A DNA stretch of 64,000 nucleotides from Nitrososphaeria archaeon (GTDB lineage Archaea > Thermoproteota > Nitrososphaeria > JACIWG01): positions 2,366-66,365 of the forward strand of contig JBMFNX010000004.1 in NCBI GenBank assembly GCA_049969935.1, read 5' to 3'. The stretch's first letter is position 1. Each line of letters begins with the position of its first letter. Under the pieces are notes generated by a model, which was not told the DNA's origin, did not search any database, and saw nothing but the letters and a program-made list of their open reading frames with translations. This document shows, piece by piece, positions 17,312 through 45,781 of this stretch. A program made the translations under genes and the position numbers.

Positions 17312-17343
17312 ATAATCGCATCACTTTAGACAAATATTATTGT

Positions 17344-18333: not shown

Positions 18334-18409
18334 TTTAATTGTCCACCATCAATTTGTTAAAAAATTTTATAATAAAAATTTTTATTTCAAAAATTTAGTA
18401 GTCTTTCCC

Positions 18410-20197: not shown

Positions 20198-20938
20198 TGG
20201 CTTTATTCTTCCAAAATATTCTTTATAGTATGCTATATTATGTTCGTCTCCACCTGGAACATTACCTTCCATCCATATCTTTGGCCTAACATTTTTTTCC
20301 ATCAGCTTTTCTACAACCCTCAATTCTATAGAATGTAGTATAAAAGAGTTCACGATCGTGGAAAGGGGGGCCATCCTCTGATTTAAGCCTTCAACATTTA
20401 CGGCGGCATCTCCTGTTGGAACCTTATTGTCAATAACAATGTCGGCAACCTCATACAATTTCTTATTTAACGGGTTTGATGCTGGAACACTTTTAGAATA
20501 TTCAAGAGACGTTAATGCTATAACATTAATGCCTCGAGATTTTGCTTCAAAAGCCATTTCAACTGGAACAGCATTTTTACCCGAATTGGATACGATAATC
20601 AACGTCGACCCAGGTTCAGGATTATAGTAATCCAATAGTGCCTTAGCATAGCCTGAAAGCCTTTCAACATATGTTGCTTTAAGTGCACCATTATAGCCTG
20701 ACACACTTAAGTCAAGGAAAGGATAAACTTGTACAAGCCCACCTGACCTAGTAAACATTTCCATAGCAAGCATCATAGAATGTCCTGTACCAAATATGTA
20801 TACAAGCTTATTGGAGGCTATAGAATCTACAATGCAGTCAGATGCCTTTTCGATTGAAGAGTACTCCTCCAAGTAGACTTTTTCTATAGTGTCCAAAATA
20901 TATTTTTTGTAAGTTTCAACTATTTTGCTCATACACAC
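20192..20938 (-). CDS. SIS-domain protein, UPF0309 family
   Basis: [46 protein letters not shown]-terminal GGDEHN; collinear with Bacillus UPF0309 proteins; 248 aa. Confidence 0.6.
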
Positions 20939-21021
20939 TTCTTAGAATTAAAGAAAATTTAAACTCTACGCTAAAGACATAGAAAATTTAATATATTTAA
21001 TGTAATCTGGATAATAATGTT

Positions 21022-22074: not shown

Positions 22075-22076
22075 AC

Positions 22077-23051: not shown

Positions 23052-23054
23052 TTT

Positions 23055-23849
23055 TTAGAAGAAGACAGTACCCTTCAGGTATCTTGTTCCAACAATTTTC
23101 AGGTACACAAATATTATTGTTAAAGATATTATCTGCAAGATAGAAGCTTCTGCTGCAACAAAACCGAGCATACCAGCATGTGATATGTCATCGAACACTT
23201 TCACTGGTGCGGTTAAGATGCCTGTTGGACCAGCTAGAAGGAAGGCTGTTATAAACTCGTTAAATGAGAGCACGAAGGTTAAGAGTATACCGGAGGTTAT
23301 ACCTGGACCTATAAGTGGTAGAACAATATAGATAAACCTCTTTAAACCTGTAGCACCTAAACATGCTGCCGCCTCCTCGTAGGAAACTTCCAATCTTCTA
23401 AAGGCAACTATAGAAGATAATAACATCATGGGAAGAAATCCTGTAGTATATGTTACAATAAATCCCAGTATACTTAAACACTGCTTGTATATTAGGTAAA
23501 AGGACAGTATAAGCGATAGAGCGTATGCAATTCCTGGAACATACCATACACCAATTAAAGTAAGAAGTATTGGCCTCTTACCTCTAAACTCGTATCTTGT
23601 TAAAGAGTATGCGGCAGGTATTGCTATGAGCAGATCCAGTACAACAGTTGCCAGTGAAAGTTGAAGGCTTAACCAGACCCTAGGCCAGAAGACTCCTGCC
23701 ATACTGAAATAGTTTGATAAACTAAGCTGACCCTCTGGAGACCAAAGTGAACGCCAGAAGGAGACCATAAAGGGAATAAAAATTAGTATTGATACAAAGA
23801 TTATGTAAATATATGATATTATAGTTGAAAATTCAACCTTTTCCCTCAA
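23055..23849 (-). CDS. ABC transporter permease (PotC-like)
   Basis: Six TM helices; EAA-like loop EAAACLGATGLKRFIYIVLPLIGPG; 264 aa. Confidence 0.75.
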   Translation of the reverse strand: MREKVEFSTIISYIYIIFVSILIFIPFMVSFWRSLWSPEGQLSLSNYFSMAGVFWPRVWLSLQLSLATVVLDLLIAIPAAYSLTRYEFRGKRPILLTLIGVWYVPGIAYALSLILSFYLIYKQCLSILGFIVTYTTGFLPMMLLSSIVAFRRLEVSYEEAAACLGATGLKRFIYIVLPLIGPGITSGILLTFVLSFNEFITAFLLAGPTGILTAPVKVFDDISHAGMLGFVAAEASILQIISLTIIFVYLKIVGTRYLKGTVFF

Positions 23850-24685
23850 ATCAGTACACCTCTAGAAACTTTAAGTGAAATGAACGTGAATATTAGTGAT
23901 ATAATTACTAGGGCTGAAGCGAGCGCGGCTGCGAGACCATAGTTCATCATCAAAAGGCCTACCATGCGAATCTGTATAGATAGAACTCTTTGGCCTACCA
24001 CAACACCGCCCATCAAATATGGTATAGCGTATGCGCCAATATTCCATCCGAAGGCCATAAACCATCCACCCATAAGACCCGGCAAGCTCAATGGAAGCAA
24101 AATATGCATGAACCTTCTAAACCGGTCTGCTCCAAGACAGCTTGAAGCCTCCTCTAAGACAGGGTCTATTTGGCTTATGTTTATACCCATCTGTAGGACA
24201 GCGAATGGTAGAGTGTATATTGCGAGAGCCAATGCGGCGGTTACTGGAGTATAGAGTATGGCAAAAGGGGATATGCCGATTGACTCGAGGAAGGATGAGA
24301 AGGGGCCCTTTGGTAGAAAAAGCCACCAGAAGCCGTATGCTATGTAAAGTTCTCCAAGCAATGGAACCATCAAAATTGACCTAAAAAAGTCTGAAAGAAA
24401 CCTTACCTTTCTAAGCAGCAGGTAGGCATATGGGTAGCCTACAATAACATCCAATGTTGCAGAGAAGGCGGCCAACATAAGTGTATTCCTGAAGTCTGGA
24501 ATATAGTTGGTTGTTATCTTAACATAGTTTTCTAAAGTGAATATTGGTTGGAAGAAGTAGCTTGAACCCTTTGTGAAGCTAACATAGAATAGTAGTATGA
24601 ATGGTATAATAAAGAATAGGACTGCAAATGTTAAGGCTGGAATAATAAATATTATTGGCTTAATTTTTTCAAAATATTCGTTCAT
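23846..24685 (-). CDS. ABC transporter permease (PotB-like)
   Basis: EASSCLGADRFRRFMHILLPLSLPGL EAA motif; multi-TM; 4-nt overlap with downstream permease. Confidence 0.75.
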   Translation of the reverse strand: MNEYFEKIKPIIFIIPALTFAVLFFIIPFILLFYVSFTKGSSYFFQPIFTLENYVKITTNYIPDFRNTLMLAAFSATLDVIVGYPYAYLLLRKVRFLSDFFRSILMVPLLGELYIAYGFWWLFLPKGPFSSFLESIGISPFAILYTPVTAALALAIYTLPFAVLQMGINISQIDPVLEEASSCLGADRFRRFMHILLPLSLPGLMGGWFMAFGWNIGAYAIPYLMGGVVVGQRVLSIQIRMVGLLMMNYGLAAALASALVIISLIFTFISLKVSRGVLI

Positions 24686-24719
24686 AATATTCTACCAAAA
24701 AATTTTTAGGAGCCAGAAG

Positions 24720-26048
24720 CTATCCACCTATAAGCTTCTGGTAGTATGAGACCCATTCTTCAGCATGCGCGTTAATGTATTCCCAGTCCAGAATCTGCAT
24801 AGATGGGTAAATGTATTTCTTGTACTGGTCTAGTGTTGGGAAAACCTTGTAAAAGTTTTCTTTTCCACCCCACCAGTCTGGTATAAACTGTTCATAGTAT
24901 GGGCCAAGCGGGCCTTCGATCATTCCAGCCCAAAGCTTCTTCGCTTCAGTTGGATTAAGTTCCTTAAAGCCTGGAGAATTGATGTCTGGGAACTGGAACT
25001 CTTTGCTCAGAAGCCAGTCAACATATATTTGGGCTAATACTGGATGCTGAGCCTTTTTAGGTATCCATGCAACACCAGGCAAGTTTGGCATGAACGGTTC
25101 AAGAAGCTTGGGACCAAGCCACTTGTTTCCAGCAGCCTGCTCCATTTCATAGCTGCAACACCAGTATGATGTTATCCATGTAACATTCTTTTCAGACAAT
25201 TCAATTATTTCCGCCTCATCACTTGTATACTTTAATACATTTGGATGAATGTTTTTTGCAACCCATTCTATTGCCTTCTTCATTTGCTCAGGATTCTTGT
25301 AATCGTATCCCAATGCTGTTGCAACAGTAGCCAAGAAGGCCCAGAAACCGTTATCTGAAAGAGACCATAAGGTGATTTTACCCTTAAGCCTGGGGTCTGC
25401 AAGATCAAGCCAGCTCTTAACAAAACCAGTCTTTTCTAGATTAAATACTGGTGTAACCATCGCATGCTGCTGGAACTGAACACCATATGGTGCAAATATG
25501 AAGACTGGGTCTACAAAGGCCAGGTTCGGGACAAGCGGCGAAGGCAGGAACGGTTCAGCAACATCCTTTGCCTTTGCCTCTTCAAAGAAGTTTATTTCTA
25601 TATGCATCACATCATATGGTGCCGGCAGTCCCGCTTGGTAGGCAGAGTAAAGTTGGTACATGAAGCCACCCTTAGCCTCCTGTGTGCCAACAAACTTTAC
25701 TTCAATATCGACACCATACTTGTTTTTCACATAGCTCTTGAACGATGGTATAAAATATGTGTCCACAAGGCCCCAGTAGGTCCAGTCCGCGATCGTTATA
25801 GAACCCTCCTTCTTTATTTCATCAACGATTTCTTCATATGACATGTACTTGTTTAATATTGGAACCCAGACTTTACCCTCATAAGGCCAAGGCTGAGGCT
25901 TTCCTGAAGTTTGTGTCACAGTCTTGGTTACAGTTGTTACGCCAGCCGCTGGTGCCGTAAGAAGGTAGATTGTGCTTCCAAGAAATATTAAGGCCAAAAC
26001 TGTTGAGACAAGAAACATGCTTTTCCAATTCATGATATTCACCGTCAA
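24720..26048 (-). CDS. ABC transporter substrate-binding protein (family 1 SBP) with N-terminal membrane anchor
   Basis: N-terminal hydrophobic helix then Thr/Val-rich linker (VTTVTKTVTQTSGKP); Trp/Tyr-rich periplasmic-binding-protein-like body; 442 aa. Confidence 0.6.
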   Translation of the reverse strand: MTVNIMNWKSMFLVSTVLALIFLGSTIYLLTAPAAGVTTVTKTVTQTSGKPQPWPYEGKVWVPILNKYMSYEEIVDEIKKEGSITIADWTYWGLVDTYFIPSFKSYVKNKYGVDIEVKFVGTQEAKGGFMYQLYSAYQAGLPAPYDVMHIEINFFEEAKAKDVAEPFLPSPLVPNLAFVDPVFIFAPYGVQFQQHAMVTPVFNLEKTGFVKSWLDLADPRLKGKITLWSLSDNGFWAFLATVATALGYDYKNPEQMKKAIEWVAKNIHPNVLKYTSDEAEIIELSEKNVTWITSYWCCSYEMEQAAGNKWLGPKLLEPFMPNLPGVAWIPKKAQHPVLAQIYVDWLLSKEFQFPDINSPGFKELNPTEAKKLWAGMIEGPLGPYYEQFIPDWWGGKENFYKVFPTLDQYKKYIYPSMQILDWEYINAHAEEWVSYYQKLIGG

Positions 26049-26163
26049 AGAATATTAAAGAGCATATTATTTAAATTTTTTCTTGCCGCGGAAACTTATT
26101 ATAAAAAATTGAGAAATTATAATTTTATAATATACATTTTGCATAAAATTTTTATAAAAAGGT

Positions 26164-27237
26164 TTAGGCCTTTTTAATGATCGTGAATCGTCTTATATGG
26201 AATTTTCTTGAGCCTACCGCGTCAACCATTTTAAACCTGTCAGGGCCATAGAGGTCGACCTTAAGAAGTCTATTCCCGAGGCTTATCATTAAACGAGTAT
26301 TTGTTCCAAGGAATGTAGAACGTTCAATCTTTGCCTCGAAAACATTATCCTTATCTTTAGGATCTTCTATAACTTCTATATCTTCCGGCCTTATGCTTAA
26401 AATTATGCTATCATTAACCTCGTATTCTTGAACATTGGGCATGGGATCGGATACAAGGGAGAGGTCTTGGACATTAATCTTCAACCTATTTCCTGTAACT
26501 TCAGCAATTGTTCCCTCGAGGAAATTGGATGTTCCAATAAAGTCTGCTACAAAGTCTGATTGAGGGTTTAGATATAGTTCTAAGGGTGTTCCAACCTGCT
26601 GAACCCGTCCATGATTCATGACATAAACTTTGTCCGATATCGCGAAGGCTTCAGCCTGATCGTGTGTGACATAAATTGCAGTCTTGCCAGTCTCCTTCTG
26701 GATGCGTCTAATCTCATATTTTAGATCATCTCTTAATTTTGCATCCAGATGGCCTAAGGGTTCATCGAAAAGTAGAACTTCAGGGTCTGTAGCCAGAACT
26801 CTTGCAATATCAATACGCTGTACTTGGCCACCGCTAAGCTGTGAGGGCATCCTCTCCTCGAAGCCTTCCATATGTACAAGTTTGAGAACCTCCTTAACCC
26901 TTGTATCAATCTCATTTTTTGGAAACTTTCTCATTTTAAGTCCGAAGGCAACATTCTTGTAAACGTTCATGTGTGGGAAAAGTGCGACCTTTTGGAAAAC
27001 GAAGCCGATGCTCCTCTTGTGGGGGGGCACGTTTGTTACATCCTTTTCACCAAAGTATACTTTTCCAGTATCAGGCTTAACCAGGCCAGAAATTATTCTT
27101 AACGTTGTAGTTTTACCGCATCCACTTGGACCAAGTAGTGTCACAAGCTCTTTATCTTTTGCTTCAATGTTCACATGATCGACGGCCAAAAAATCTCCAA
27201 AACGTTTAGATATGTCGACAGCCCTAACACTGACCAT
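26164..27237 (-). CDS. ABC transporter ATP-binding protein (PotA/MalK-like with C-terminal TOBE-like domain)
   Basis: Walker A LLGPSGCGKTT, signature LSGGQVQR, Walker B LLFDEPLGHLD; 357 aa. Confidence 0.85.
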   Translation of the reverse strand: MVSVRAVDISKRFGDFLAVDHVNIEAKDKELVTLLGPSGCGKTTTLRIISGLVKPDTGKVYFGEKDVTNVPPHKRSIGFVFQKVALFPHMNVYKNVAFGLKMRKFPKNEIDTRVKEVLKLVHMEGFEERMPSQLSGGQVQRIDIARVLATDPEVLLFDEPLGHLDAKLRDDLKYEIRRIQKETGKTAIYVTHDQAEAFAISDKVYVMNHGRVQQVGTPLELYLNPQSDFVADFIGTSNFLEGTIAEVTGNRLKINVQDLSLVSDPMPNVQEYEVNDSIILSIRPEDIEVIEDPKDKDNVFEAKIERSTFLGTNTRLMISLGNRLLKVDLYGPDRFKMVDAVGSRKFHIRRFTIIKKA

Positions 27238-27282
27238 ACATTCTATTTTCAGGTAAACATCTTATAAGTTTTAAGTACTATA

Positions 27283-28494
27283 TTAGCTTATGCTTGAAAT
27301 TAGTTTAGTAAACTCCTTTTCAGACACTCTCTTCTCCAGATACCATGCAAGATACTTTGAAAACGTTTCATAGAATTTGTTTGAAAATTTTTCGTTGAAA
27401 CAGTTTTTGTAGCTATTGTAAAATATCTTTTCCTCAAAATCCAATATATTACTTTCGAAAATTTTTGATGAACCTTTAATCGGGGGAAAGAATCCGGTTT
27501 CAATTAACCCTTTCAGGAAATTGGGCTCATATAGTTCCTCTAAAAATTTTATCGATAAGTGAACATTCTTTGAACTTTTGCATATTCCGAAAGCCATAAG
27601 GTAGCCAACCGAATTTGAGGACATTGAATTCGATGGAATCGGAGCGATTCCAATGTTTTCCATCCCACGATTGGATAGGGTGTGTACTGCGTAATTCCAT
27701 TGTATCATGATAGGAAACCTTTCTGCAATAAATTCGTCATCTAATACAGAAGATTCAAGATAAATGACTTCAGGGGGAGAAATTTTTTCTTTCATCAAAA
27801 AAGAATAGGTGTCTAGGAGACTTTCTATTGTTTCATTAGACAAAAATTTTATGGTCGAATTTGTTGCAAGAGTCTGGCCGCCAAGGTTTTCATAAAGTGA
27901 TTGAAATACTAGAGAAGAATGTCTTCCTTCAAGAGAGTAGATGGCGAGACCGTATTCGGTTGGAGAATTTGGATTACATGCTTTTGAAAAATTTTTTGCA
28001 ATTAGAATTAGTTGGTTAAAAGATTTCGGTGGTTCAATAATATAGTTTTTGTTATATACAAGGATTGGGAATGAGGTGTGGAATGGTAGAGCGTAAAGGC
28101 TTCCATTGCTATAGAAGGTGCGTACGGCTTTTTCATAAAATTGTTCAGTTAAACTAAGATTTAATGGTAGAAGATATGGTAAGATTTCTTTAAAATTAAA
28201 GTTTGTGACAACAATCATGTCTATTGAAGAATTTTTTGATGATAAAATAGTTGGAAGAATAGATTCTTTATCAAAATCTATTACATTAACATAGAAGCCC
28301 ATTTTTTGGAAACTAGGATTCCATCTTTCAATCAGATTCTTGAAGGCGATAGCGTCTGGAGCAAGATAATGTGATAGAAAAACAACATTAATTTCATTAG
28401 CTGGTTTAACATGATATTGATTATATAATAGAGGGAGTGTGATTATAGAAAGCAATAGTATGGATATGATTATAGCCAACCTTCTTGAACGCAT
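27283..28494 (-). CDS. Putative second substrate-binding protein (divergent family 1 SBP-like) with N-terminal membrane anchor
   Basis: N-terminal TM helix (LAIIISILLLSIITLPLL); Asn/Tyr/Phe-rich soluble body; first gene of the transporter operon. Confidence 0.4.
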   Translation of the reverse strand: MRSRRLAIIISILLLSIITLPLLYNQYHVKPANEINVVFLSHYLAPDAIAFKNLIERWNPSFQKMGFYVNVIDFDKESILPTILSSKNSSIDMIVVTNFNFKEILPYLLPLNLSLTEQFYEKAVRTFYSNGSLYALPFHTSFPILVYNKNYIIEPPKSFNQLILIAKNFSKACNPNSPTEYGLAIYSLEGRHSSLVFQSLYENLGGQTLATNSTIKFLSNETIESLLDTYSFLMKEKISPPEVIYLESSVLDDEFIAERFPIMIQWNYAVHTLSNRGMENIGIAPIPSNSMSSNSVGYLMAFGICKSSKNVHLSIKFLEELYEPNFLKGLIETGFFPPIKGSSKIFESNILDFEEKIFYNSYKNCFNEKFSNKFYETFSKYLAWYLEKRVSEKEFTKLISSIS

Positions 28495-28561
28495 TAAGCA
28501 TACATGTTACTGAATTGGATATAAGGTTTAAAAATTAAAAATGATAGAGGAGTAGGCTACG

Positions 28562-28816
28562 ATGATGATAAAAATGGTGACCGTCAAATTTGAGAAGATA
28601 AAGGATAAGGTTGAGGAATTTAATGCATTCGTTAAAGAGAAGAAAAATATTGAGGGAAAGGTTGACGGTGATACAATAGTGTTTGAAAACATTGATAGAG
28701 ACGATTTAAGGCTTCTCTTAAAAAAGTTTCTTCACAGGATCGATGGAGACGATTTTAGAGTGGTATCTAAAGTAGGCGTTCTGACCGTGGTGGAGAAAAG
28801 GAAGTTTAAAATGTAG
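28562..28816 (+). CDS. Small hypothetical protein (84 aa) with eL22-like sequence pattern
   Basis: FNAFVKEKKNIEGKVDG..IVFENIDR and DLRLLLKKFLHRIDGDDFRVV resemble the eL22 core (FEQFLQERIKVNGKAGN..VVTIER; KKYLKKNNLRDWLRVV); 43 nt upstream of argS. Confidence 0.35.
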   Translation: MMIKMVTVKFEKIKDKVEEFNAFVKEKKNIEGKVDGDTIVFENIDRDDLRLLLKKFLHRIDGDDFRVVSKVGVLTVVEKRKFKM

Positions 28817-28859
28817 GAGTTAGCTTTTTAAAGCTAGTAGGCATATAAAAGGGAAAGAT

Positions 28860-30758
28860 ATGCCGTTTAAGATTCTTAAAGAAGAAGTGAAATCGCTAAT
28901 AGAGAAGGCGTTAAAAGAGCTAGGGTATCCTTTAGTTGAATTTCTTGTTCAAGAGCCTCCATCACTTGAGTATGGTGAACTTTCATCTAATGTCGCGTTC
29001 GAGGTAGGGAGGAAAGTTAAAAGAGACCCTATTGAGGTAGCATTAAAAATTTCTTCAAAAATTATGGAGTTTGAGAGGAAAACTGTTAAACAGGTTTCAG
29101 TAGCTGGACCAGGTTACCTAAACTTTAGTGTGGATAGAATAAAGTATTTTGGGGAAACAATAAATCATCTACTACAAGAAAGGCCTGGATATGTTGATGT
29201 AGGTAAAGGTATTAGGGTTATAGTTGAGCATACGAGTGTTAACCCAAACAAGGCTCTACATATAGGGCATCTGAGAAATGTTGTTATAGGCGACATTGTT
29301 CACCGTCTACTAAAATATACTAATCATGAAGTTATAGTTTTAAATTATATTGACGATTCTGGAGCACAGGTTGCCGACATAATTGTGGGATTCAAGTTCC
29401 TCGGCTTCCCCGATAGACCAGGGGAAGACAGTATAAAATTTGACCAATACTGTGGAGACCATGTTTACGTTAAAGTTAACCAAATTTACGCACAAAATCC
29501 TCAGACAGAAAACTATAGAAGAATCGTTTTAAAGGAAATGGAGAACCCTAGTTCAGAAATATACAAGTTTGCAAAAGATATTATAGAAAAGGTTCTAATT
29601 GAACAGCTAAAGACATGCTCAGAAATTGGAGCATACTATGATTGCCTAAACTTTGAATCCCATATCATGTTCTCTAATACTTGGAAAAACATTTTCGAAC
29701 AGTTAAAGGAAAAAAAATTAATTTCATATTGTAGTGAAGGAAAGAATGTAGGATGCTGGGTGTATAGGGACGAAAGTGGACAGGAGAAGGTTATTATAAG
29801 AAGCGATGGGACAGCCACATACATTGCAAAGGACATACTTTATGCTGCATGGAAACTTGGACTCGTTGAAGACTTCTTCAAGTACGAGAAATTTATTGTT
29901 CAAAAAAATGGTAAAATTTTGTGGAGGACAACACTTTCTGAAGGTGAAAAAGAACATCCAATATTCAATAACGCTGAGGTAGCTATAAACGTTATCGACA
30001 TTAGACAAGCTTGGCTACAGAACATAATTTCAGAAATATTGAAAAAGTTTGTTGGCAGAGAGTCAAATAAAAGGTACATTCATTTAGGTTACGAGGTTGT
30101 ATCCTTAAGCAAGGATACGGCTAAGGAAATAGGTGTTGAGGTTAGCGATAAAGAGTTCGTTCACATGTCAGGTAGAAGTGGAATGTACATTAACGCTGAC
30201 ACAGTCCTAGAAAAGCTTTTCAAACTCTCTTACGAGGAGACAAAGAAAAGAAATCCTGACGCTGACGAGAAATGGTTGAATGAGGTAGCTCATTCTATAG
30301 CGGTTTCTGCAATAAGATACAGTTTGATAAGACAGGATCTTGGAAAGATACTTGTTTTTGACTTGAAGGAAGCCCTAAAATTGGAGGGTGACACAGGACC
30401 ATATCTACAGTACACGTATGCTAGAGCATATAATATTATAGAAAAGTATGGTAGGATTCCAGAAAAAGTGAAAGTCTTTGATAAGCTTAATGAGGATGAA
30501 GAGTATGTCCTTTTGATTGAACTGTCAAAGATTAGGGAGAAGGTGGAGGAGGCGGCTATAAAATTGCAGCCGAATAAGATTGCAGAATACGCTCACAAAC
30601 TTTGCTTATATTTTAACACATTTTATGAAAAACATCAAGTATTGCATGAGAAAGATGAATCTAAAAGGGAGCAGAGGATACTGCTCGTATATTCCTTTAC
30701 AAGAGCATTGAAAACATTAATGGACATACTTGGAATAGAAGCACACAAAAGAATATAA
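28860..30758 (+). CDS. argS: Arginyl-tRNA synthetase
   Basis: HTSVNPNKALHIGHLRN (HIGH), MSGRSG (KMSK-equivalent), DALR-type anticodon-binding C-domain; 632 aa. Confidence 0.9.
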   Translation: MPFKILKEEVKSLIEKALKELGYPLVEFLVQEPPSLEYGELSSNVAFEVGRKVKRDPIEVALKISSKIMEFERKTVKQVSVAGPGYLNFSVDRIKYFGETINHLLQERPGYVDVGKGIRVIVEHTSVNPNKALHIGHLRNVVIGDIVHRLLKYTNHEVIVLNYIDDSGAQVADIIVGFKFLGFPDRPGEDSIKFDQYCGDHVYVKVNQIYAQNPQTENYRRIVLKEMENPSSEIYKFAKDIIEKVLIEQLKTCSEIGAYYDCLNFESHIMFSNTWKNIFEQLKEKKLISYCSEGKNVGCWVYRDESGQEKVIIRSDGTATYIAKDILYAAWKLGLVEDFFKYEKFIVQKNGKILWRTTLSEGEKEHPIFNNAEVAINVIDIRQAWLQNIISEILKKFVGRESNKRYIHLGYEVVSLSKDTAKEIGVEVSDKEFVHMSGRSGMYINADTVLEKLFKLSYEETKKRNPDADEKWLNEVAHSIAVSAIRYSLIRQDLGKILVFDLKEALKLEGDTGPYLQYTYARAYNIIEKYGRIPEKVKVFDKLNEDEEYVLLIELSKIREKVEEAAIKLQPNKIAEYAHKLCLYFNTFYEKHQVLHEKDESKREQRILLVYSFTRALKTLMDILGIEAHKRI

Positions 30759-30808
30759 TCGTGCACTATACTAAAGCTTATATCCAGTAAACTGGTGAAG
30801 GAACTGTA

Positions 30809-31729
30809 ATGTTTTACGATTATGGTATGGAATTGAAGGATTTGGGTATAATATCAGATGAAAAGATTGAAGCCTTAAAAAAGGAGAATATTAGGACATG
30901 CATACAACTTTTGTTTGCTCCAAATGATGTAATAGAAAAGTATTTTAGCGAAAGTGAAAGGCAAGAAATTTTTATTAAAATTGAAGAACTTTTTCCAGCA
31001 GTCTACAGGTTTAGGGAGATAAAACTTGAGCCAGTGACTGTTAAAACTTCGATAAAAGAACTTGACAAAATACTTGGGGGAGGAATAAGCTCAGCTAATA
31101 TAACAGAAGTTTGTAGTGAGAAAAGGTATATAAGGACACTGTTTGCATACAATATAATACTAAATTTTCTACAATTGTTCGAGAAAACGGCAATATTGTA
31201 CAATGATTCAAACAAGATGTTCAGGCCTGAGGGACTATGTGAACTAGCACATTATAGGGGGATAGAGGAAAACTTTTTTCTTGAAAAAATTTTCGTCTTT
31301 AAGCCTTACACAGTTTTTCAGCAGTTCGAAGTATTCGAACTGTTAGAAAAAAATATTAAGTCAGATTTGAGAATACTATTTGTTATTGATGGAATTGGAG
31401 ACTTCTTTAAGTCTACTACAAAAAGAAAGGACATCACATTTTATAACCTTCGCATGCTTGAAAGCTTTGTTTTAAGAGCAAATTATTTTTCAATCAAATA
31501 TAATATGATAGTATTGCTGTTAAACAATTTAATAAGAGATTTTAAAACAGACGCTGTCGAACCACAATTTAATTCAATAATAGGAGAGGCTGTTGGAACA
31601 AGAATACTTTTTTATGAAGATAGCGATTCTGTAAGGGCTAAAGTTATAATAGGAGAGAATGTGAAGGAGATTAGGTTAAGTTTAACAGACTATGGCGTAA
31701 GTGATGCTGTTGATAGAAAATTTGGATAA
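30809..31729 (+). CDS. RadA/Rad51 paralog with N-terminal HhH-like domain and degenerate Walker A (likely non-catalytic)
   Basis: Collinear with radA (42058-43062): LDKILGGGI, MFRPEGL..YRG.., Walker B-like ILFVIDGIGDFF; P-loop GEFGSGKTQ replaced by CSEKRYIRT (31112-31138). Confidence 0.6.
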   Translation: MFYDYGMELKDLGIISDEKIEALKKENIRTCIQLLFAPNDVIEKYFSESERQEIFIKIEELFPAVYRFREIKLEPVTVKTSIKELDKILGGGISSANITEVCSEKRYIRTLFAYNIILNFLQLFEKTAILYNDSNKMFRPEGLCELAHYRGIEENFFLEKIFVFKPYTVFQQFEVFELLEKNIKSDLRILFVIDGIGDFFKSTTKRKDITFYNLRMLESFVLRANYFSIKYNMIVLLLNNLIRDFKTDAVEPQFNSIIGEAVGTRILFYEDSDSVRAKVIIGENVKEIRLSLTDYGVSDAVDRKFG

Positions 31730-32033
31730 GATAATAGATTTCATTGAAAGTGATAGGTGGGAGGAGGCAAAGGATATTGCAAAAAATTCTGTGGGAGCAA
31801 CATTAGCAGTAAATGCAATAAAATACCTGCAAAAGAACTCTTCTTTAGAGAAAGAGATTGATAAGATAAAACGTTTGAGAGAAAACTTTTCGAAACTGAT
31901 TGAGGGAAAATGGTTGCAGGAAACAGACTTAGACTATTTCACAGTCCTATTCACTTTCTTTGAACGTGTAGAAAAGAGGTTACAGGAAACCGCTTACGTG
32001 AAGAGTGTAGTAGAAGATCCAGACAAAGAGTGA
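31701..32033 (+). CDS. Hypothetical protein (110 aa), overlaps 3' end of RadA-paralog gene
   Basis: GTG/ATG start inside the stop region of the upstream gene (29-nt overlap); helical; no motif. Confidence 0.3.
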   Translation: MMLLIENLDKIIDFIESDRWEEAKDIAKNSVGATLAVNAIKYLQKNSSLEKEIDKIKRLRENFSKLIEGKWLQETDLDYFTVLFTFFERVEKRLQETAYVKSVVEDPDKE

Positions 32034-32261
32034 AAGCATTATGTACGTGCCGATGCCGGTTGTAAAAAGGGAACCATTGTCACCTTTATCTGAAAAGATA
32101 TAGTATTTGCCTATAAAATAGGAGAGGAGATAGAATAATATGATTGTTAGTACACCAAAAAATGAGGATTCATTACTAAAGTTCATTACTCCAGAAAATA
32201 GTCCAGCAAATATTGCAAAAACAACTCTTAGCCAAAAGAGCTTATTTTTATCCGTTACCAT
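31980..32261 (-). CDS. Small membrane protein (3 predicted TM helices)
   Basis: 93 aa, three hydrophobic segments; fills the gap before the NFACT gene. Confidence 0.3.
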   Translation of the reverse strand: MVTDKNKLFWLRVVFAIFAGLFSGVMNFSNESSFFGVLTIILFYLLSYFIGKYYIFSDKGDNGSLFTTGIGTYIMLSLFVWIFYYTLHVSGFL

Positions 32262-32267
32262 AGTAGG

Positions 32268-34178
32268 TTGACCCCCATGCGGGACCAGACAATGAACAAC
32301 ATAGAACTATTTCACCAGACACGATGGTTGAACACCAATCTTAGAGAATATTACGTTAATAATGTTTACTGGGCTATAGTGAACAGGGCTCTTGTAATAA
32401 GATTACATCATCCAACAAATCCAGAAAAAAGGTTAGTTATAGATAGTGGGAGAGCAATTTGGGTAACTGAAACAAAGTTAGAGGAAGAGGGTGCAGACCA
32501 ACTGTTAAGACAGTTTAGGAAATTTCTTTCTAGGGGAAAAATTTCTAGAATAGAACAATTTGGTACAGAACGAATAATAGGCATAGAATTTGTTGGAAGT
32601 ATAGCGAGACAGCTTATTGCAGAATTTTTTGGCAGAGGAAACATAGTTCTTGTTGACGAAAAAAATGTTATTTTAACAGCATTAGAATATTATCAGACAA
32701 GACATAGAATTATAGCTCCAGGAAAAGAGTATACAACACCACCTGAAAGGGGAATGGATCCACTTAAAATAGAAGCATATCATCTTAAACCAATACTGAA
32801 ATATGAGGATGATTTTAGAAAGTGGGTTGGAAAAAATTTAGCCTTACCCAAAAAATATGTTGACATACTGCCAAAGCTTATTGGAGTAAAAGATGGAACA
32901 TTGGGTAGGGAATTGGATGAAGAAAAGCTTTCGAAAATTTTGAATAAGATTAGAGAATTTTTTATGGAAGAAAACGTTAAACCTACAATCTATTTAGAAG
33001 ATAGTGAAGTTGTAGACTTTTCAATATTTCCATATAATTTTGAGGGATTAAAATGTGAGGAGGCCAAGAGTTTAAATGAGGCAGTGGAAAAAATTTTCAC
33101 TAAACTAATTTTGGAAGAAAAAGAAACTGGAAAAATGTATCCGATTATGAGAGAAAAAGAGAGAATAGAGCGGTCAATAGGAGACCTTAGCAGAAAAAAA
33201 GATGAAATGATAAAGGACAGCGAATTTTTGTCTGAGCTCGCTAAAAAAATAAGAGAGAACATTCAGCTAATATATCAAGACTATGAAGATTTTAAGAAAA
33301 GACTTTCTCCAGCAAAAATTACGTCAGAAGATGATTCAGAAAAGCTTGTCTACAAAGAATACATTTTTATATTTGATAGAAACAATCCACTTAAAACATG
33401 CTCAGAAATTTATAGTCGGGCAAAAACTCTTTTAGAAGATTCAAGAAAGATTGAGGAATCAATAAGAGGGTTACAGAATGAAATGGAAATATTGGAGAGG
33501 AAGATTAGAGAGAAGAAAAGAGTGTTTGAGAAAGAGTATAAGAAGGTTTATGAAAAGGAATGGTTTGAAAAATATAGATGGTTTTATACTACAGAAGGAT
33601 TTCTTGCAGTTGGAGGAAGAGATGCATCATCAAACGAGGCTATAATAAAAAAATATCTTGAGGAAGAGGATATCGTCTTTCATGCCGACATTGTTGGAGC
33701 ACCATTTTTTATCCTAAAAAAGGGTAAAATGGCTGGAGAAAATAGTTTAAGGGAGACAGCTACTGCGGCTGTGGCTTTCAGCAATTTCTGGAAGATGGGA
33801 GCTTCAGCTGGAGAAGCGTATTGGGTTTACAGAGATCAGATTTCAAAACAGGCACCCTCCGGCCAATATATGGGGAAGGGAGCCTTCATGATCACTGGAA
33901 GGAGAAACTATATTAGAAACCTGCCAATAGAATTAGCGGTAGGAATAATTAGGATAAAAGAACATTATTCAGTAGTATGCGGTCCAGTTGACGCGATAAA
34001 AAAGTATTGTGAAAAATATTTGGTGATTGTACCAGGTAATGAGGACAAGAATTCCATTGCAAAAAAGGTGGTAAGATACTTTTTTGAAAAAGTTGGTGAA
34101 AATGTTAAGGAAATATCTTTAGAAGAGTTTATACAGGCATTGCCTCCTGGAGGATGCAAGATCAAACGATATATTTGA
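32268..34178 (+). CDS. NFACT-family protein (RqcH/Rqc2/NEMF homolog; FbpA-like)
   Basis: NFACT-N-like N-terminus, central coiled coil, NFACT-R/DUF814 motif FLAVGGRDASSNEAIIKKYLEEEDIVFHADIVGAPFFILKKG; 636 aa. Confidence 0.7.
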   Translation: MTPMRDQTMNNIELFHQTRWLNTNLREYYVNNVYWAIVNRALVIRLHHPTNPEKRLVIDSGRAIWVTETKLEEEGADQLLRQFRKFLSRGKISRIEQFGTERIIGIEFVGSIARQLIAEFFGRGNIVLVDEKNVILTALEYYQTRHRIIAPGKEYTTPPERGMDPLKIEAYHLKPILKYEDDFRKWVGKNLALPKKYVDILPKLIGVKDGTLGRELDEEKLSKILNKIREFFMEENVKPTIYLEDSEVVDFSIFPYNFEGLKCEEAKSLNEAVEKIFTKLILEEKETGKMYPIMREKERIERSIGDLSRKKDEMIKDSEFLSELAKKIRENIQLIYQDYEDFKKRLSPAKITSEDDSEKLVYKEYIFIFDRNNPLKTCSEIYSRAKTLLEDSRKIEESIRGLQNEMEILERKIREKKRVFEKEYKKVYEKEWFEKYRWFYTTEGFLAVGGRDASSNEAIIKKYLEEEDIVFHADIVGAPFFILKKGKMAGENSLRETATAAVAFSNFWKMGASAGEAYWVYRDQISKQAPSGQYMGKGAFMITGRRNYIRNLPIELAVGIIRIKEHYSVVCGPVDAIKKYCEKYLVIVPGNEDKNSIAKKVVRYFFEKVGENVKEISLEEFIQALPPGGCKIKRYI

Positions 34179-34226
34179 CTTTAGAAATATTTTTTTACTT
34201 CCATCTTTTAACCAGATTACGATAGA

Positions 34227-34796
34227 ATGTCTGTGGAAACGAAGAGTACAAATCCTGCAAATTTGACAGTAAGGGAGGTAATGAATAGTCCAGTTATTAC
34301 TGGAAAGCCTGATGAAACTATTAGAATGATAGCGAAGAAGATGACAGAGAACGAGGTTGGAAGTATTGTGATAGTTGAGGATGGGAAGCCTGTCGGCATG
34401 GTTACAGATGGTGACATAATAGACAGGGTTGTCTCAAAGGGTTTAAACCCTGACGAAGTCAAGGCAAAAGATATTATGAGCAAACCAATCTTGACCGTCG
34501 ACGTAGAGACAACAATAGTTGACGCTGCAAAGTACATGAGAAAGAATAGGGTTAAGCGTGTTGGGGTAACTTATAGGGGTAGAATTGAGGGAATCCTCTC
34601 CATATGGGATATTATATCAGTTACACCAGAGATAGTTGAGATATTTTCTGAAAAACTTAACATACAGTCTTCACTATTACAGTCTGAGAAAGAGGCAGTT
34701 TATTTTGCAGGATACTGTGACACATGCTCAAGATGGTCTGACCTACTAATTGAAGTTGATGGAAAATACGTTTGTGAAGAGTGCAGAAGCGATTAG
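34227..34796 (+). CDS. CBS-pair protein with C-terminal zinc ribbon
   Basis: Two CBS motifs (VREVMNSPVIT.., GMVTDGDII..) and C-terminal CDTC-x15-CEEC. Confidence 0.7.
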   Translation: MSVETKSTNPANLTVREVMNSPVITGKPDETIRMIAKKMTENEVGSIVIVEDGKPVGMVTDGDIIDRVVSKGLNPDEVKAKDIMSKPILTVDVETTIVDAAKYMRKNRVKRVGVTYRGRIEGILSIWDIISVTPEIVEIFSEKLNIQSSLLQSEKEAVYFAGYCDTCSRWSDLLIEVDGKYVCEECRSD

Positions 34797-35707
34797 TTGA
34801 GAAGCTTAAACCAAAACAGTTTTTAATAAGATTTGGTAAATGTTATGTTAGTGAAAAATTTTTGCCTACCGTAGAAGATTTTATGACAAGTGAAGTTTTT
34901 GTTGTTAAACCCTCTGACACTTTGGCCCGTGCAAAAAATTTGATGCTTTCAAAAAAGATTGGAAGACTTGTTGTAGTAGAAGATGATAAGGTTGTTGGAA
35001 TTTTAACAAGAGAAGATATAGCGAAGGCTATTATATCATCTAAGCCTTCAATAAAATCTAGGCCAATAGACCAGCTTCTCGTATCCCATTTTATGAGAAA
35101 AGAAATTCTAACGGTTCAACGTACAACAAGCATTAGTGAGGCTGCAAAGATTATGCTTGACAAGGAAATTGGAGGATTGCCAGTAACAAGTGGGAAAAGG
35201 TTGATTGGAATAATAACAACACATGATATAACAAAGTATGTTGCCCAACTTCCACTAGAAAATTTGCTCGTAAAAGATTACATGTGCAAAGAAGTCGCCA
35301 CTGTATCACCATTTCATAGTATAGCTCATGTTGCAGAACTACTATTTAGGACGCCAACACATAGGGTGATAGTGTTAGATGCTAGAAAAAAGCCTGTTGG
35401 CATTATTACACCATCAAATCTAACATTCGTAAAATTTGCTACAACTAGAGCAGTAAGTTCAAAACGTTCTCTCTCAAGAGGGGGGGAGGCGACTCATGAG
35501 AGGATAAGCTATGTTGCCATAGCAACTGCAGAAGATATTATGACAACACCCCTTGTTATAGTGCACGAAAACGATAATGTCAGGCTTGCTGCATCTATTA
35601 TGGTGAAAAAGGATATAGGTGCGCTTCCAGTCCTTAACGTGGAAGGAAGTGTTAGTGGAATATTTTCTAAAAAGGAGGTTTTAGAAATTGCCTCAAAGAT
35701 GGGATAA
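34781..35707 (+). CDS. CBS-domain protein (four CBS motifs)
   Basis: Repeated hG(I/V)(I/L)T..D(I/L) CBS signatures; start codon uncertain (overlaps upstream gene). Confidence 0.7.
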   Translation: MQKRLVEKLKPKQFLIRFGKCYVSEKFLPTVEDFMTSEVFVVKPSDTLARAKNLMLSKKIGRLVVVEDDKVVGILTREDIAKAIISSKPSIKSRPIDQLLVSHFMRKEILTVQRTTSISEAAKIMLDKEIGGLPVTSGKRLIGIITTHDITKYVAQLPLENLLVKDYMCKEVATVSPFHSIAHVAELLFRTPTHRVIVLDARKKPVGIITPSNLTFVKFATTRAVSSKRSLSRGGEATHERISYVAIATAEDIMTTPLVIVHENDNVRLAASIMVKKDIGALPVLNVEGSVSGIFSKKEVLEIASKMG

Positions 35708-36494
35708 ACTGAAATCGGTTCCATTACAAAATGTTGGTCTGGTTTCAAAGTCAGACAAGATACCTATGATGTTTCATGAACTAAAACGGACGAGATTGGA
35801 TAGGGTTATAGTTAAAGATAACGAGAATCTTGTCGGCATAGTAACATTAAGAGACATTTTTACAAAACTGGCATCAAAAAAGTTCAGTAACATTTCTCCA
35901 AAGTCATTAAGTATAGCATCCTTTATGAGTGAAAATTTCTTCCATGTATTAGAGGATAATACAATCGATGACGTGATAAAGTTGATGGCTGAGAAAAATG
36001 TAAGCGGTGTACCCGTTTTAGACAAAAAAAGAAAGCTACTTGGAATAATTACTAAAAATTATTTAATAAACTTAGTAGCAAATGAGTTAAAAGGCTATGT
36101 TAGAGACTATATTATAAAAGTAGGTTACAAAATTTCAGTTGGAACAAGCTTGGCAACGTTATCAAACGAGATACTCAAAAATGTTGATGCAAGAGAATTT
36201 GTTGTAGTACAAGGGAACAGACTTTTAGGGGTTGTTGGCGAAAAGGAAATCGCATACTTCCTATTCAATTACCTTTCCGACGACAATATAGTAAACATGA
36301 GAAATGCTTTACACAATTATGTTGTAAACGATATACTAACTTTCATTAACGAACCGTTAAAGCCAAATGATCCAGTACAATATGCAGCAAAACTGTTCTC
36401 CAACACAAACCTCGTAATATACCCTGTAGCAGAAGATGATATCCTACTTGGAGTGATAAGGAGAAGAGAATTATTTAATCAACTTTCCAGGTAA
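35688..36494 (+). CDS. CBS-domain protein (four CBS motifs)
   Basis: LVGIVTLRDIF, VSGVPVLD, LLGIITKNYLI, LLGVVGEKEI; 268 aa. Confidence 0.7.
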   Translation: MPQRWDKLKSVPLQNVGLVSKSDKIPMMFHELKRTRLDRVIVKDNENLVGIVTLRDIFTKLASKKFSNISPKSLSIASFMSENFFHVLEDNTIDDVIKLMAEKNVSGVPVLDKKRKLLGIITKNYLINLVANELKGYVRDYIIKVGYKISVGTSLATLSNEILKNVDAREFVVVQGNRLLGVVGEKEIAYFLFNYLSDDNIVNMRNALHNYVVNDILTFINEPLKPNDPVQYAAKLFSNTNLVIYPVAEDDILLGVIRRRELFNQLSR

Positions 36495-36500
36495 CCGAGG

Positions 36501-37802
36501 TTGAGTACAAGAATAGTTAATGGAAGGATATGGAAAGATGGAAACATACTAGAGAAGGATATAATCATAGAAGATGATAAGATAGTAGGTATTGTGAGAA
36601 AAGGCCAACACATGCAAGTTGATAAAATAATGGATGCAGAAGGCGCACTCATATTGCCTGGACTGATAGACGCGCACACACATTTAAGGGATTCAAAGAT
36701 CTCCTACAAAGAAGATTTTGTGAGCGGAACATCAGCGGCGGTAGCGGGAGGATTTACTTTAGTATTAGATATGCCGAATACTGAGCCGCCGATAACAAGT
36801 CCAGAAAGGTTAAGGGAGCGTATCAGCTCGGCTGAAAAAAGGATATTATGTGATGTCGGATTCTATTCCATGCCACTTGACCTAGATTGTGTGAGCAAGC
36901 TTTCGGAAACAGGATGTGTAGGGTACAAGATTTTCACTCACAAAAGTTTTGAAAACAAAATTTTTTTTGAAGACGAAAATATAGAGGCGCTTTTGAAGGC
37001 TGTAGAAAGGACTGGGAAAACACTTTCAATTCATGCAGAAGATCCTTCAAAAATAGGATTTTTGGGAGAAAAGTATACTGCAATAGAGCATGCGAAAGCA
37101 CATACTGTAGATGCGGAAGCAAGCATGATAGAAAAGATTCTCAGACTTTCTAGAAAACATTTTACCAAGATCAGGTTCTGCCATGTAACTACAGCAAAGG
37201 GACTGCAAATGATAGTTGATGAGAAGAGGCAAAGCTTTAACTATTTTGTAGAAGTTACACCAGCACACCTTACATTAGATGAAAGCATTTTATTAGAATG
37301 TGATAAAATATGTGTGGTTGAACCACCTATAAGGGAAAAGAGTAATGTTATATTTTTGAGAAAAATGTTTTGGGATGGGGCTGTAGACGTTGTTGGAACA
37401 GACCATGCACCTCATACACTAGAAGAAAAGCTTTCAGACAAGCCTCCTGCAGGATTTCCAGGGCTTGAGACGGCGGTGCCAATCCTATTCACTCTAGCTA
37501 AAAAGGGTTTCATACCCTTCTCTAAACTGATTGAAAGCCTAACATCTAATCCAGCCAAAATATTTAACCTCAAAGGCTACGGCACCATAAGAGAAGGTAA
37601 TGTAGCGAACCTAACATTGATAAAATTTGTGCCAGAATATCGAATCGATTCATCAAAATTTTATTCGAAGGCAAAATTCACACCATTTGAAGGATACAAG
37701 GTTGAGGCTGCTGTAGCAAAAACTATCATCAGAGGAAAAACAGTTTACGAGAGAGGCGTAGGAATAGTTGACGAGAAAAGGGGTAAGGTTGTCAGAACAT
37801 AA
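36501..37802 (+). CDS. pyrC: Dihydroorotase (cyclic amidohydrolase family)
   Basis: LILPGLIDAHTHLRD, HAED, VVGTDHAPHT metal-ligand motifs; 433 aa. Confidence 0.8.
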   Translation: MSTRIVNGRIWKDGNILEKDIIIEDDKIVGIVRKGQHMQVDKIMDAEGALILPGLIDAHTHLRDSKISYKEDFVSGTSAAVAGGFTLVLDMPNTEPPITSPERLRERISSAEKRILCDVGFYSMPLDLDCVSKLSETGCVGYKIFTHKSFENKIFFEDENIEALLKAVERTGKTLSIHAEDPSKIGFLGEKYTAIEHAKAHTVDAEASMIEKILRLSRKHFTKIRFCHVTTAKGLQMIVDEKRQSFNYFVEVTPAHLTLDESILLECDKICVVEPPIREKSNVIFLRKMFWDGAVDVVGTDHAPHTLEEKLSDKPPAGFPGLETAVPILFTLAKKGFIPFSKLIESLTSNPAKIFNLKGYGTIREGNVANLTLIKFVPEYRIDSSKFYSKAKFTPFEGYKVEAAVAKTIIRGKTVYERGVGIVDEKRGKVVRT

Positions 37803-38301
37803 ATTTATTGTCGACTCCATGCATGGGAAACTTGCAAGAAAGATGAGGTTATATGGATTTGACACATTATATGATGTGAAATTTGATGACAGCAAAATAA
37901 TTGAGATAGCGAAAATTGAGGGTAGGACAATAATAACTTCGGATGAAGCGTTAATTGAAAGAGCTAAGTCCGAGAAACTTCAAGTGATATGGGTTCCATT
38001 AGATAGTGACCTTCCAAGAATGATTAAAATATTTGAGACAATAAAAATTTTGCCAAAGATAGACCCTAAAAAATCTCGATGCCCAAACTGTAATAGCCCA
38101 CTTGCTATAGTTAAAAAGGAGGATGTTAAAGACGTGCCTGAGAATGTTTTGAAGAGGAAAAGAATATTCTATAAGTGTACAGGATGTGGGAAAGTTTACT
38201 GGCATGGCTCCCACTGGAGAAAGATAAGGGAGTTTGAAAAAACACTTAAGAGGATGTTAAATGAATTAAGGGAAGGGAGAAAGAATGAACCTAAGCGATG
38301 A
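37768..38301 (+). CDS. Mut7-C/PIN-like RNase domain protein with zinc ribbon (COG1656-like)
   Basis: FIVDSMHGKLARKMRLYGFDT N-terminus, C-terminal CPNC-x26-CTGCG ribbon; overlaps pyrC stop. Confidence 0.5.
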   Translation: MTRKGVRLSEHKFIVDSMHGKLARKMRLYGFDTLYDVKFDDSKIIEIAKIEGRTIITSDEALIERAKSEKLQVIWVPLDSDLPRMIKIFETIKILPKIDPKKSRCPNCNSPLAIVKKEDVKDVPENVLKRKRIFYKCTGCGKVYWHGSHWRKIREFEKTLKRMLNELREGRKNEPKR

Positions 38302-38899
38302 TGATGGAAAAATTTTAGTTAAGTTAGCTAGAAAGGCGATAGAAGAGTATATAGTTAATGGAAGAAAATATGTTCCTCCAGAGGATATAAAGAACAGATT
38401 TTCTGAAAAGGCAGGAGTCTTTGTGACAATAAATAGTGTGGTTGGAGAAGAGAGGGAGTTGAGGGGATGCATAGGCTTTCCAGAGGCAATCTTGCCACTA
38501 TATGAGGCTGTTATAGAGGCTGCAATTGCTGCAGCAACAGAGGATCCAAGATTCGAGCCTCTAAAAAAAAGTGAACTTGACAAAATATTGATAGAGGTAA
38601 GTGTTTTAACACCACTTGAGCTTATAAAAGTTGATTCACCACTTCAGTATCCTGAAAAGATAAAGGTTGGAGAGGACGGGCTGATGCTTAGATGGAGATG
38701 GGGTTCAGGGCTACTACTTCCACAGGTTGCAGTAGAATATGGATGGGATGCAAGAGAATTTCTTGAAAACCTATGTCTTAAGGCAGGCACAACACCAGAT
38801 TCCTGGCTTAGAAAGGATGTGAAAATTTACAAGTTCCAGTGCCTGATTTGGGAAGAGAAAGGTAATGGGGAAATTGTTAGAAAGCGTTTGAAAGAATAA
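38285..38899 (+). CDS. AMMECR1-domain protein
   Basis: Diagnostic LRGCIGFPE motif; 204 aa. Confidence 0.8.
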   Translation: MNLSDDDGKILVKLARKAIEEYIVNGRKYVPPEDIKNRFSEKAGVFVTINSVVGEERELRGCIGFPEAILPLYEAVIEAAIAAATEDPRFEPLKKSELDKILIEVSVLTPLELIKVDSPLQYPEKIKVGEDGLMLRWRWGSGLLLPQVAVEYGWDAREFLENLCLKAGTTPDSWLRKDVKIYKFQCLIWEEKGNGEIVRKRLKE

Positions 38900-38942
38900 A
38901 AACAAATAAATACTAGTTTAACATTATAGCCTTCGAAAAAGT

Positions 38943-40658: not shown

Positions 40659-40705
40659 GGGCAAGACAAAATTTTTAAATCAATATACTTTGGATAGATT
40701 GCGAA

Positions 40706-42019: not shown

Positions 42020-42057
42020 AAAGTAGAAGTTAAAAGCAACCTATATTATACCCATAT

Positions 42058-43062: not shown

Positions 43063-43084
43063 TGTTGGATATTGTATATATAGA

Positions 43085-45775: not shown

Positions 45776-45781
45776 AATTTT

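Follow-up and report, generated by a model that had tools for sequence, protein, structure and literature searches.

Two RecA-family genes at the locus

The window analysed here is a stretch of 64,000 nucleotides from a Nitrososphaeria archaeon, with a G+C content of 38%, in which an Rfam scan returned no matches. When all ORFs of the window were scanned with hidden Markov models (HMMs), just two members of the RecA family were found: a RadA-like paralog and, 11.2 kb downstream on the same strand, the genuine radA gene (Table 1). According to the ORF list and its translations, the paralog reads from an ATG start codon through 306 amino acids with no interruption, and its product holds the segments LDKILGGGI, MFRPEGL, YRGIEE, LFVIDG and LSLTDYGVSDA. 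The resident RadA carries the loop GEFGSGKTQ and scores 432.9 bits on the NCBIfam RadA model NF003301, for which the cut-off is 259.

Table 1. Features of the paralog locus, in positions of the window
Feature	Coordinates	Strand	Basis
TATA-like box AAAGCTTATATCC, 24-36 nt upstream of the paralog ATG; candidate own promoter	30773..30785	+	read from sequence
RadA-like pseudo-ATPase CDS, 306 aa, stop codon included	30809..31729	+	intact ORF, Pfam Rad51, Foldseek, dN/dS
N-terminal helical domain and linker, residues 1-72; RadA N-domain homologue with degenerate HhH glycine hairpins	30809..31024	+	hhalign
Former Walker A region ITEVCSEKRYIRTL, residues 98-111; S103, E104 and R109 invariant, R109 replacing the Walker lysine	31100..31141	+	alignments A1, A3
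YNDSNKMFRPE, residues 131-141; RadA catalytic Glu (IDTE) now Asn (NDSN), FRPE kept	31199..31231	+	alignments
Walker B-like strand ILFVID, residues 189-194; Asp194 invariant	31373..31390	+	alignments
IVLLLNNLI, residues 234-242; RadA/Rad51 NQ glutamine now Asn (NN)	31508..31534	+	alignments
109-aa all-helical protein, start overlapping the paralog 3' end; conserved partner gene of the cassette	31704..32033	+	synteny, dN/dS, AlphaFold
Downstream block: NFACT, three CBS genes, amidohydrolase, Mut7-C, AMMECR1; synteny anchor	32268..38899	+	window ORFs
Genuine RadA recombinase, 334 aa, all motifs intact; presumed functional partner	42058..43062	+	NF003301

Fold and N-terminal domain of the paralog

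The paralog matches the Pfam Rad51 family (PF08423) over residues 76-272 with 54.9 bits, well over the gathering cut-off of 22 (E=9.6e-15), and BLASTP gives 28% identity to the resident RadA across 131 amino acids (E=1e-11), the alignments of the two proteins ranging from 21 to 28% identity. An NCBIfam RadA model aligns to residues 8-276 and the Dmc1 model to residues 10-299, matches that take in practically the entire protein but lie far under their equivalog cut-offs; on the two archaeal RadA models the paralog reaches 62.6 bits against a cut-off of 259 (NF003301) and 53.5 against 361 (TIGR02236). Only residues 78-120 align to the Pfam KaiC-type ATPase family (PF06745), at 14.6 bits against a cut-off of 26.6 (E=0.021). 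An AlphaFold model of the paralog (mean pLDDT 75.9, the core at 80-94 and residues 1-70 at 36-59) was searched with Foldseek, where Dmc1, RadA and Rad51 matched it along their full length (E about 1e-19 to 1e-20). Because Pfam, BLASTP, NCBIfam and Foldseek all return such matches, the likeness of the paralog to RadA is well above chance. A profile built from the paralog and its close relatives, which we refer to as the degenerate family, detects DMC1 (E=9.5e-21), RAD51 (from profile position 9), RadA and RadB among solved structures, and RAD51B, C and D more weakly (E=1.8e-7 to 8e-5).

The first 72 residues have the right length for the (HhH)2 domain of RadA, and their five predicted helices are collinear with it, albeit in a part of the model with low pLDDT. 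In hhalign comparisons this segment matches the N-domain of a paralog from Nitrososphaerales with E=2e-7, and canonical RadA weakly but collinearly (E=0.0036). The helix-hairpin-helix domain that the original prediction had described as retained appears to be present as a domain, with a homology that is significant only by way of the Nitrososphaerales paralog, but its HhH glycine signatures, GVGP and GIS in RadA, have not been kept. The linker that follows reads LF[PKR][AG][VI]YRF in close orthologs, VGGVYRV in the distant relative P0007 and TKGISRG in P0008. Across the degenerate family the FxxA polymerization motif of RadA is not conserved: F62 occurs in close orthologs only, and hhalign places Y66 of the paralog opposite the RadA phenylalanine of FxxA.

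Loss of the nucleotide site

The Walker A sequence of RadA, YGEFGSGKT, aligns without gaps to CSEKRYIRT in the paralog, a segment with no glycines and no lysine. The original prediction, of a full-length RadA paralog that retains its N-terminal domain and has a destroyed P-loop, is borne out both by this alignment and by the Pfam, NCBIfam and Foldseek matches. Nor is the replacement a local sequencing error, one of the outcomes that would have told against the original prediction: an intact GxxxxGKT occurs in none of eight orthologs, and all nine family sequences conform to [CF]SE[KRQ][RH][YHF]xR[TSAI]. Position 110 within this pattern is Thr or Ser in seven of the nine, Ala in P0002 and Ile in P0007.

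The earlier description of the lost Walker A motif, although correct, understated the change, because the catalytic glutamate, the NQ glutamine, the GGH motif and the ATP cap have gone as well. In the degenerate family the L2 motif GGH is absent (the equivalent is QFNS, in a loop three residues shorter), as is the DSP ATP cap, whose equivalent is IGE (IIGE in the paralog). What is kept from RadA is the Walker B aspartate, D194, and the FRPE motif. Nowhere is the protein better conserved, nonetheless, than in the segments of its former nucleotide site: column identity reaches 0.81 in the former P-loop, 0.80-0.88 in YNDSNxxFRPE and 0.86 in LLLNNL, where the average over the protein is 0.68; L2 is poorly conserved, at 0.56. 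Invariant residues of this remodelled pocket are S103, E104, R109, N132, D133 and N239. The AlphaFold model has the helix that follows strand 1 beginning at residue 106, three positions ahead of the lysine-equivalent R109, so that the phosphate loop would be absorbed into the helix, leaving no open loop. At the level of sequence, then, these comparisons demonstrate a paralog without a canonical or functional nucleotide site.

A further change lies in the strand of the Phe-acceptor pocket, which is an invariant VFKPY in the degenerate family, compared with YARAY in DMC1 and VGKVY in the RadA of the window; here an invariant phenylalanine and proline take the place of small residues. From RAD51 structures, too, we take these strand positions to have a Phe-acceptor role. 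Their role in the pocket has been described (PMC5480776).

Relatives of the paralog and selection on the gene

Three independent assemblies (ENA ERZ3623746, NCBI GCA_023256095.1 and JGI 3300019821) carry the 918-nt gene without a single difference. A word-index search of 5.8 billion proteins found six relatives at 55-92% identity, and another two, P0007 and P0008, at about 40%, came from an exhaustive HMM search through 1.84 billion representatives, in which scores beyond the family fall sharply from about 267 to 89 bits. The eight relatives thus span 39-92% identity and, with the window protein, make nine members from separate samples, every one with an intact reading frame. Pairwise dN/dS ratios for close pairs were 0.28, 0.16, 0.17 and 0.15, similar to that of the neighbouring NFACT gene (0.13) and above that of the neighbouring ArgRS gene (0.04). 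The paralog is a stable, selected protein of the RadA/Rad51 fold, in which a helical domain at the N-terminus precedes the RecA core.

The degenerate clade is rare, amounting to three 50%-identity clusters among the 1.84 billion representatives and to four GTDB species representatives in a pattern scan keyed to the N-terminus of close orthologs. All its members are labelled either as Nitrososphaeria metagenome-assembled genomes or as 'uncultured archaeon'; some isolate names (DRTY7, SKW303) resemble hot-spring sample codes, although this is a guess on our part.

Relationship to a class-wide Nitrososphaeria paralog

After the degenerate family, the next-best matches in the search of representatives were RadA-like proteins of roughly 300 amino acids with an intact GxxxxGKTQ. 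In all of the roughly 60 clusters of this kind examined, labelled Nitrososphaerales, Thaumarchaeota or Nitrososphaerota, Walker A is kept (GxxxxGK[TS]Q). These proteins have no catalytic glutamate (FVD[ST]xGTFRPER), have NT for NQ and GGN..Q for GGH, and are without an ATP cap. Like the window family, they consist of an N-domain and a RecA core in about 300 amino acids, are encoded at the head of the same downstream cassette, and lack the catalytic glutamate, NQ, the GGH histidine, the DSP cap and FxxA; they are also its best profile match. The window family differs from them in that Walker A is replaced, in its great divergence and in its shorter L2.

Profile comparison by hhalign scored the degenerate family at 234 against the Walker-A-intact family (E=8e-34) and at 200 against canonical RadA (E=1e-28), while the alignment of the Walker-A-intact family (A4) scored 508 against RadA. 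In a neighbour-joining tree of 66 sequences the degenerate clade was recovered in 100 of 100 bootstraps and was joined by the Walker-A-intact family, with RadA left outside, in 71 of 100. A second such tree, of 142 RecA-family hits, again gave a monophyletic degenerate family (50 of 50) but an unstable sister, the family attaching to other long branches such as P0010 and P0150. The smaller of these crude neighbour-joining trees lends no more than moderate support to a sister relationship of the two families. Taking shared gene order (below), profile comparisons and the rough tree together, we conclude that, as far as such comparisons reach, the window gene is orthologous by position to a RadA paralog found throughout the class Nitrososphaeria, or is at any rate its closest sister.

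The Walker-A-intact family appears to have been met before. Wu et al. (2011) described 'Unknown 2' as a novel subfamily of the RecA superfamily from ocean metagenomes, into which the RadA-like proteins from Cenarchaeum symbiosum and Nitrosopumilus maritimus fall; in four assemblies its genes lie beside one for S-adenosylmethionine synthetase and one for an Sm-like snRNP protein (PMC3060911, Table 2). Genes for S-adenosylmethionine synthetase and an Sm-like protein also lie immediately upstream of the Walker-A-intact paralog P0042 at loci L009 and L010, and from these shared neighbours we take 'Unknown 2' to be the Walker-A-intact family. In the literature searched, only Wu et al. (2011) mentions the wider Nitrososphaeria paralog family, and we found neither a functional study of it nor a description of the Walker-A-less branch; the genome paper of the thermophilic ammonia oxidizer Nitrosocaldus simply lists 'RadA and RadB'.

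A partner gene and a conserved neighbourhood

A small gene follows the paralog directly in every locus examined, those of Nitrososphaerales included. It encodes about 93-110 amino acids, overlaps the paralog by 4-29 nt depending on the locus and is the only ORF that does so. Its dN/dS is 0.14, its AlphaFold model has a pLDDT of 80 (from a shallow alignment), and the product from the window is 27% identical to that from the Nitrososphaerales locus of P0042 (BLASTP E=1e-5). Pfam returned only sub-threshold noise for this ORF and for the 93-aa ORF on the minus strand that lies beyond it. PADLOC matched neither the paralog nor its partner, and a reading of the pair as a defence system was dropped for that reason. 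The overlap of the 3' end of one gene with the start of the other suggests coupled translation. An overlap of this kind with a small gene, where it is conserved, is characteristic of genes whose products belong to the same complex, and we infer that the paralog and the 109-aa protein form such a complex. The TATA-like box upstream of the paralog, which recurs unchanged in locus L002 and in near-identical form (AAGCTTTTATATTCC) in L001, may serve as its own promoter.

Gene order after the paralog is the overlapping small ORF, the opposite-strand ORF of about 93 amino acids, NFACT, three CBS genes, an amidohydrolase gene, Mut7-C and AMMECR1. This order is the same in the window and in orthologous loci whose paralogs are 84%, 55% and about 40% identical, and P0042 stands in the same cassette, with both small ORFs; the downstream block is likewise in order in L001, L002, L003, L009, L010 and L011. 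NFACT, the CBS genes and their neighbours offer no recombination context.

Comparison with known RadA and Rad51 paralogs

With archaeal RadA (NF003301 / TIGR02236) the window family shares the two-domain architecture, the fold, FRPE and the Walker B aspartate, but it has no Walker A, catalytic glutamate, NQ, GGH, ATP cap or conserved FxxA. RadB of Euryarchaeota (TIGR02237), aRadC and Sulfolobus Ral are further RecA-fold paralogs, with accessory roles beside RadA; RadB has been proposed to mediate recombination and to bind RadA (PMC5480776). RadB and aRadC/Ral are core-only proteins of about 220-260 amino acids (about 210-240 is typical of RadB), RadB with Walker A, whereas the window protein has 306 amino acids and an N-domain, and on the RadB model it scores 36.8 bits against a cut-off of 172.4. 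The KaiC-type ATPase domain that marks aRadC and other KaiC-like archaeal paralogs, which have no RadA N-domain, is likewise matched below its cut-off. Duplicated clades of full-length RadA have been described in Asgard archaea, a different phylum, with no mention of motif loss in the text consulted (PMC12722695). The premise of the original prediction that archaeal RadA paralogs lack the N-terminal domain thus holds for RadB and aRadC but not for the Nitrososphaeria family of about 300 amino acids nor, by report, for the Asgard duplicates.

The Rad51 paralogs of eukaryotes, too, are non-recombinase RecA-fold proteins, and are obligate partners of the recombinase. Some of them are nucleotide-independent, and Csm2-Psy3 of the Shu complex has no Walker motifs. 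RAD51B, C and D keep an N-terminal domain, as the window protein does, and complexes of RAD51B, RAD51C, RAD51D, XRCC2 and XRCC3 cap the ends of RAD51 filaments (PMC7618403; PDB 9svx, 9q29). There is, however, no specific kinship between these proteins and the window family, whose profile matches DMC1, RAD51 and RadA much better; its origin is separate, and archaeal. Its partner is a small helical protein, unlike the Shu and RAD51 paralog complexes, in which the partner is another RecA fold. The Shu-type likeness suggested by the original prediction would be one of functional analogy only.

A proposed non-catalytic accessory factor of RadA and its alternatives

The interpretation towards which we lean is that the paralog and the 109-aa protein make up a non-catalytic accessory factor, a mediator or regulator, of the resident RadA. 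The presumed link of the paralog to recombination is one of homology. The class-wide RadA paralog of about 300 amino acids has Walker A, with the catalytic glutamate and NQ already gone; one narrow group of Nitrososphaeria, perhaps mostly from hot springs, then appears to have given up ATP binding, and in it conservation is still highest in the remodelled pocket. On the interpretation favoured here, the products of the two overlapping genes would join in a complex and work through protein-protein, and possibly DNA, contacts with no turnover of ATP, in the manner of the nucleotide-independent Rad51 paralogs of eukaryotes (Csm2-Psy3). How such a factor might engage RadA is constrained by its interfaces. 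The lack of a conserved FxxA, together with the phenylalanine and proline in the Phe-acceptor strand, argues against the simplest version of the filament capping proposed originally, and insertion into a RadA filament in the canonical manner is doubtful because FxxA, the Phe-acceptor strand and the ATP-cap face are all changed. Canonical insertion or capping is not what the sequence predicts, and the paralog may instead dock differently or have a role away from filaments.

Less probable, but deserving of some weight, is that the paralog has become a RecA-fold scaffold with a new function outside recombination, possibly tied to NFACT, a ribosome quality-control factor, or to the CBS proteins, its pocket binding another ligand or a partner peptide. 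The loss of all ATP motifs and most DNA-loop motifs and the alteration of both canonical polymerization interfaces would fit such a change, the invariant pocket residues S103, E104, R109, N132, D133 and N239 suggest a new and specific role, and the gene order with NFACT is kept across the class. That adjacency may, however, be mere inheritance, because about 10 kb of unrelated housekeeping genes are kept in order; the only ORF that overlaps the paralog is the small one, and in the literature consulted paralogs of the RadA/Rad51 family act in recombination (PMC5480776, PMC7618403).

It is unlikely that the pocket still binds a nucleotide or phosphate in some non-canonical way, with Arg109 standing in for the Walker lysine and Thr110, Asp194 and Arg106 retained, as an atypical protein that binds ATP but does not hydrolyse it, like its Nitrososphaerales counterpart. 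R109 and the Walker B Asp194 are invariant, Thr or Ser occupies position 110 in seven of nine sequences and the loop is strongly conserved, all of which such binding would explain. P-loop NTPases, however, depend on the glycines of the P-loop for their backbone anion hole, and all three are gone from the paralog, which leaves it without one; in the AlphaFold model the helix extends into the loop, the two remaining sequences have Ala (P0002) or Ile (P0007) at position 110, and the catalytic glutamate, the NQ glutamine and the ATP cap supplied in trans are also missing.

We reject the view, implicit in the original prediction, that the paralog arose from the neighbouring radA by a recent duplication within this lineage and was relaxed afterwards. 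The two genes do lie 11 kb apart on the same strand and are collinear in their similarity, but such an origin is very improbable at an identity of only 21-28%. The paralog shares its position, partner ORF, cassette and derived losses with the Nitrososphaerales paralog, on whose HMM it scores 109 bits against 86 on that of RadA, and is instead the positional counterpart of the class-wide Nitrososphaeria paralog. Decay to a pseudogene, or an error of assembly or sequencing, for which the loss of motifs alone would speak, is the least credible reading and is ruled out, because the DNA is identical in three assemblies, the loop is common to eight relatives and conserved above the protein mean, dN/dS ratios lie at 0.15-0.28 and none of the nine members, which come from separate samples, has a broken frame; nor is this a unique, decaying duplicate, the other outcome that would have told against the original prediction.

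Coming back to the accessory factor of RadA, a bolder version, which we offer only tentatively, is that the two-gene module is an independently evolved archaeal counterpart of the Rad51-paralog regulators, in which the former ATP pocket (S103, E104, R106, R109, N132, D133 and N239) docks the partner or RadA. If that were so, this lineage would show, in nature, that the second RadA of Nitrososphaeria works without a nucleotide.

Implications

That archaea have full-length RadA paralogs is already known, since they have been seen in sequence from 2011 onwards, although we found no studies of them; what appears to be new is a clade in which ATP binding has, to judge from its motifs, been lost altogether. 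Contrary to what is commonly stated, not every archaeal RadA paralog is a core-only protein. The paralog amounts to a natural experiment in which the residues that handle ATP were discarded under a selection that preserved fold, N-domain and pocket together with the partner gene. It also offers biochemists a clean and presumably thermostable protein with which to study how a recombinase is modulated by a RecA fold that has no nucleotide, a question to which structures are now bringing answers for the human RAD51 paralogs. Nitrososphaeria, which include globally abundant ammonia oxidizers, carry a second full-length RadA homologue, and the degenerate clade predicts that the core job of this paralog family would be structural rather than enzymatic.

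Gene order and small ORFs around the RadA-like paralogue

The order of the genes from NFACT to AMMECR1 is constant from the hot-spring lineage of the window through to the Nitrososphaerales, a stability that is unusual given that these are unrelated housekeeping genes. Upstream of this block, the minus-strand ORF overlaps the 3' end of the gene for the all-helical partner protein, and its product gave a weak match to Pfam EMC6 (E=0.026). An ORF of 93–98 aa is called at the same position and on the same strand in five of the compared loci (L002, L003, L014, L009 and L011); in L001 and L012, for which the gene callers differ, a 43-aa plus-strand ORF takes its place.

The product of the ORF behind radA is hydrophobic at its N-terminus; at its other end a second hydrophobic stretch precedes a run of basic residues. 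It is possibly a surface protein. A scan of window positions 1..64000 at Rfam gathering thresholds found no RNA families in the 64 kb, and the window therefore contains no tRNA or rRNA genes.

Features of the window and of the Nitrososphaerales loci
Feature	Position	Strand	Context
93-aa hydrophobic ORF	31980..32261	-	Between partner ORF and NFACT
NFACT, three CBS-domain genes, amidohydrolase, Mut7-C, AMMECR1	32268..38899	+	Conserved order
896-aa ORF	43085..45775	+	Directly 3' of radA
Walker-A-intact paralogue neighbourhood	L009 6383..7840 (likewise L010)		AdoMet synthetase and LSM protein adjoining

Relationship to other RecA-family proteins

A further set of RecA-family proteins (P0041, P0053, P0073, P0081, P0098, P0117 and P0128) is core-only, at about 190–240 aa. 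Its members retain an intact Walker A and carry a TNMIRN motif but have no catalytic Glu; they resemble the Nitrososphaerales paralogue, except that the N-domain is absent from the short proteins.

Wu et al. 2011 (PMC3060911) reported AdoMet synthetase and an LSM protein as the neighbours of their 'Unknown 2' RecA subfamily. These neighbours are shared with the Walker-A-intact paralogue, which ties 'Unknown 2', an old metagenomic oddity, to this Nitrososphaerales family.
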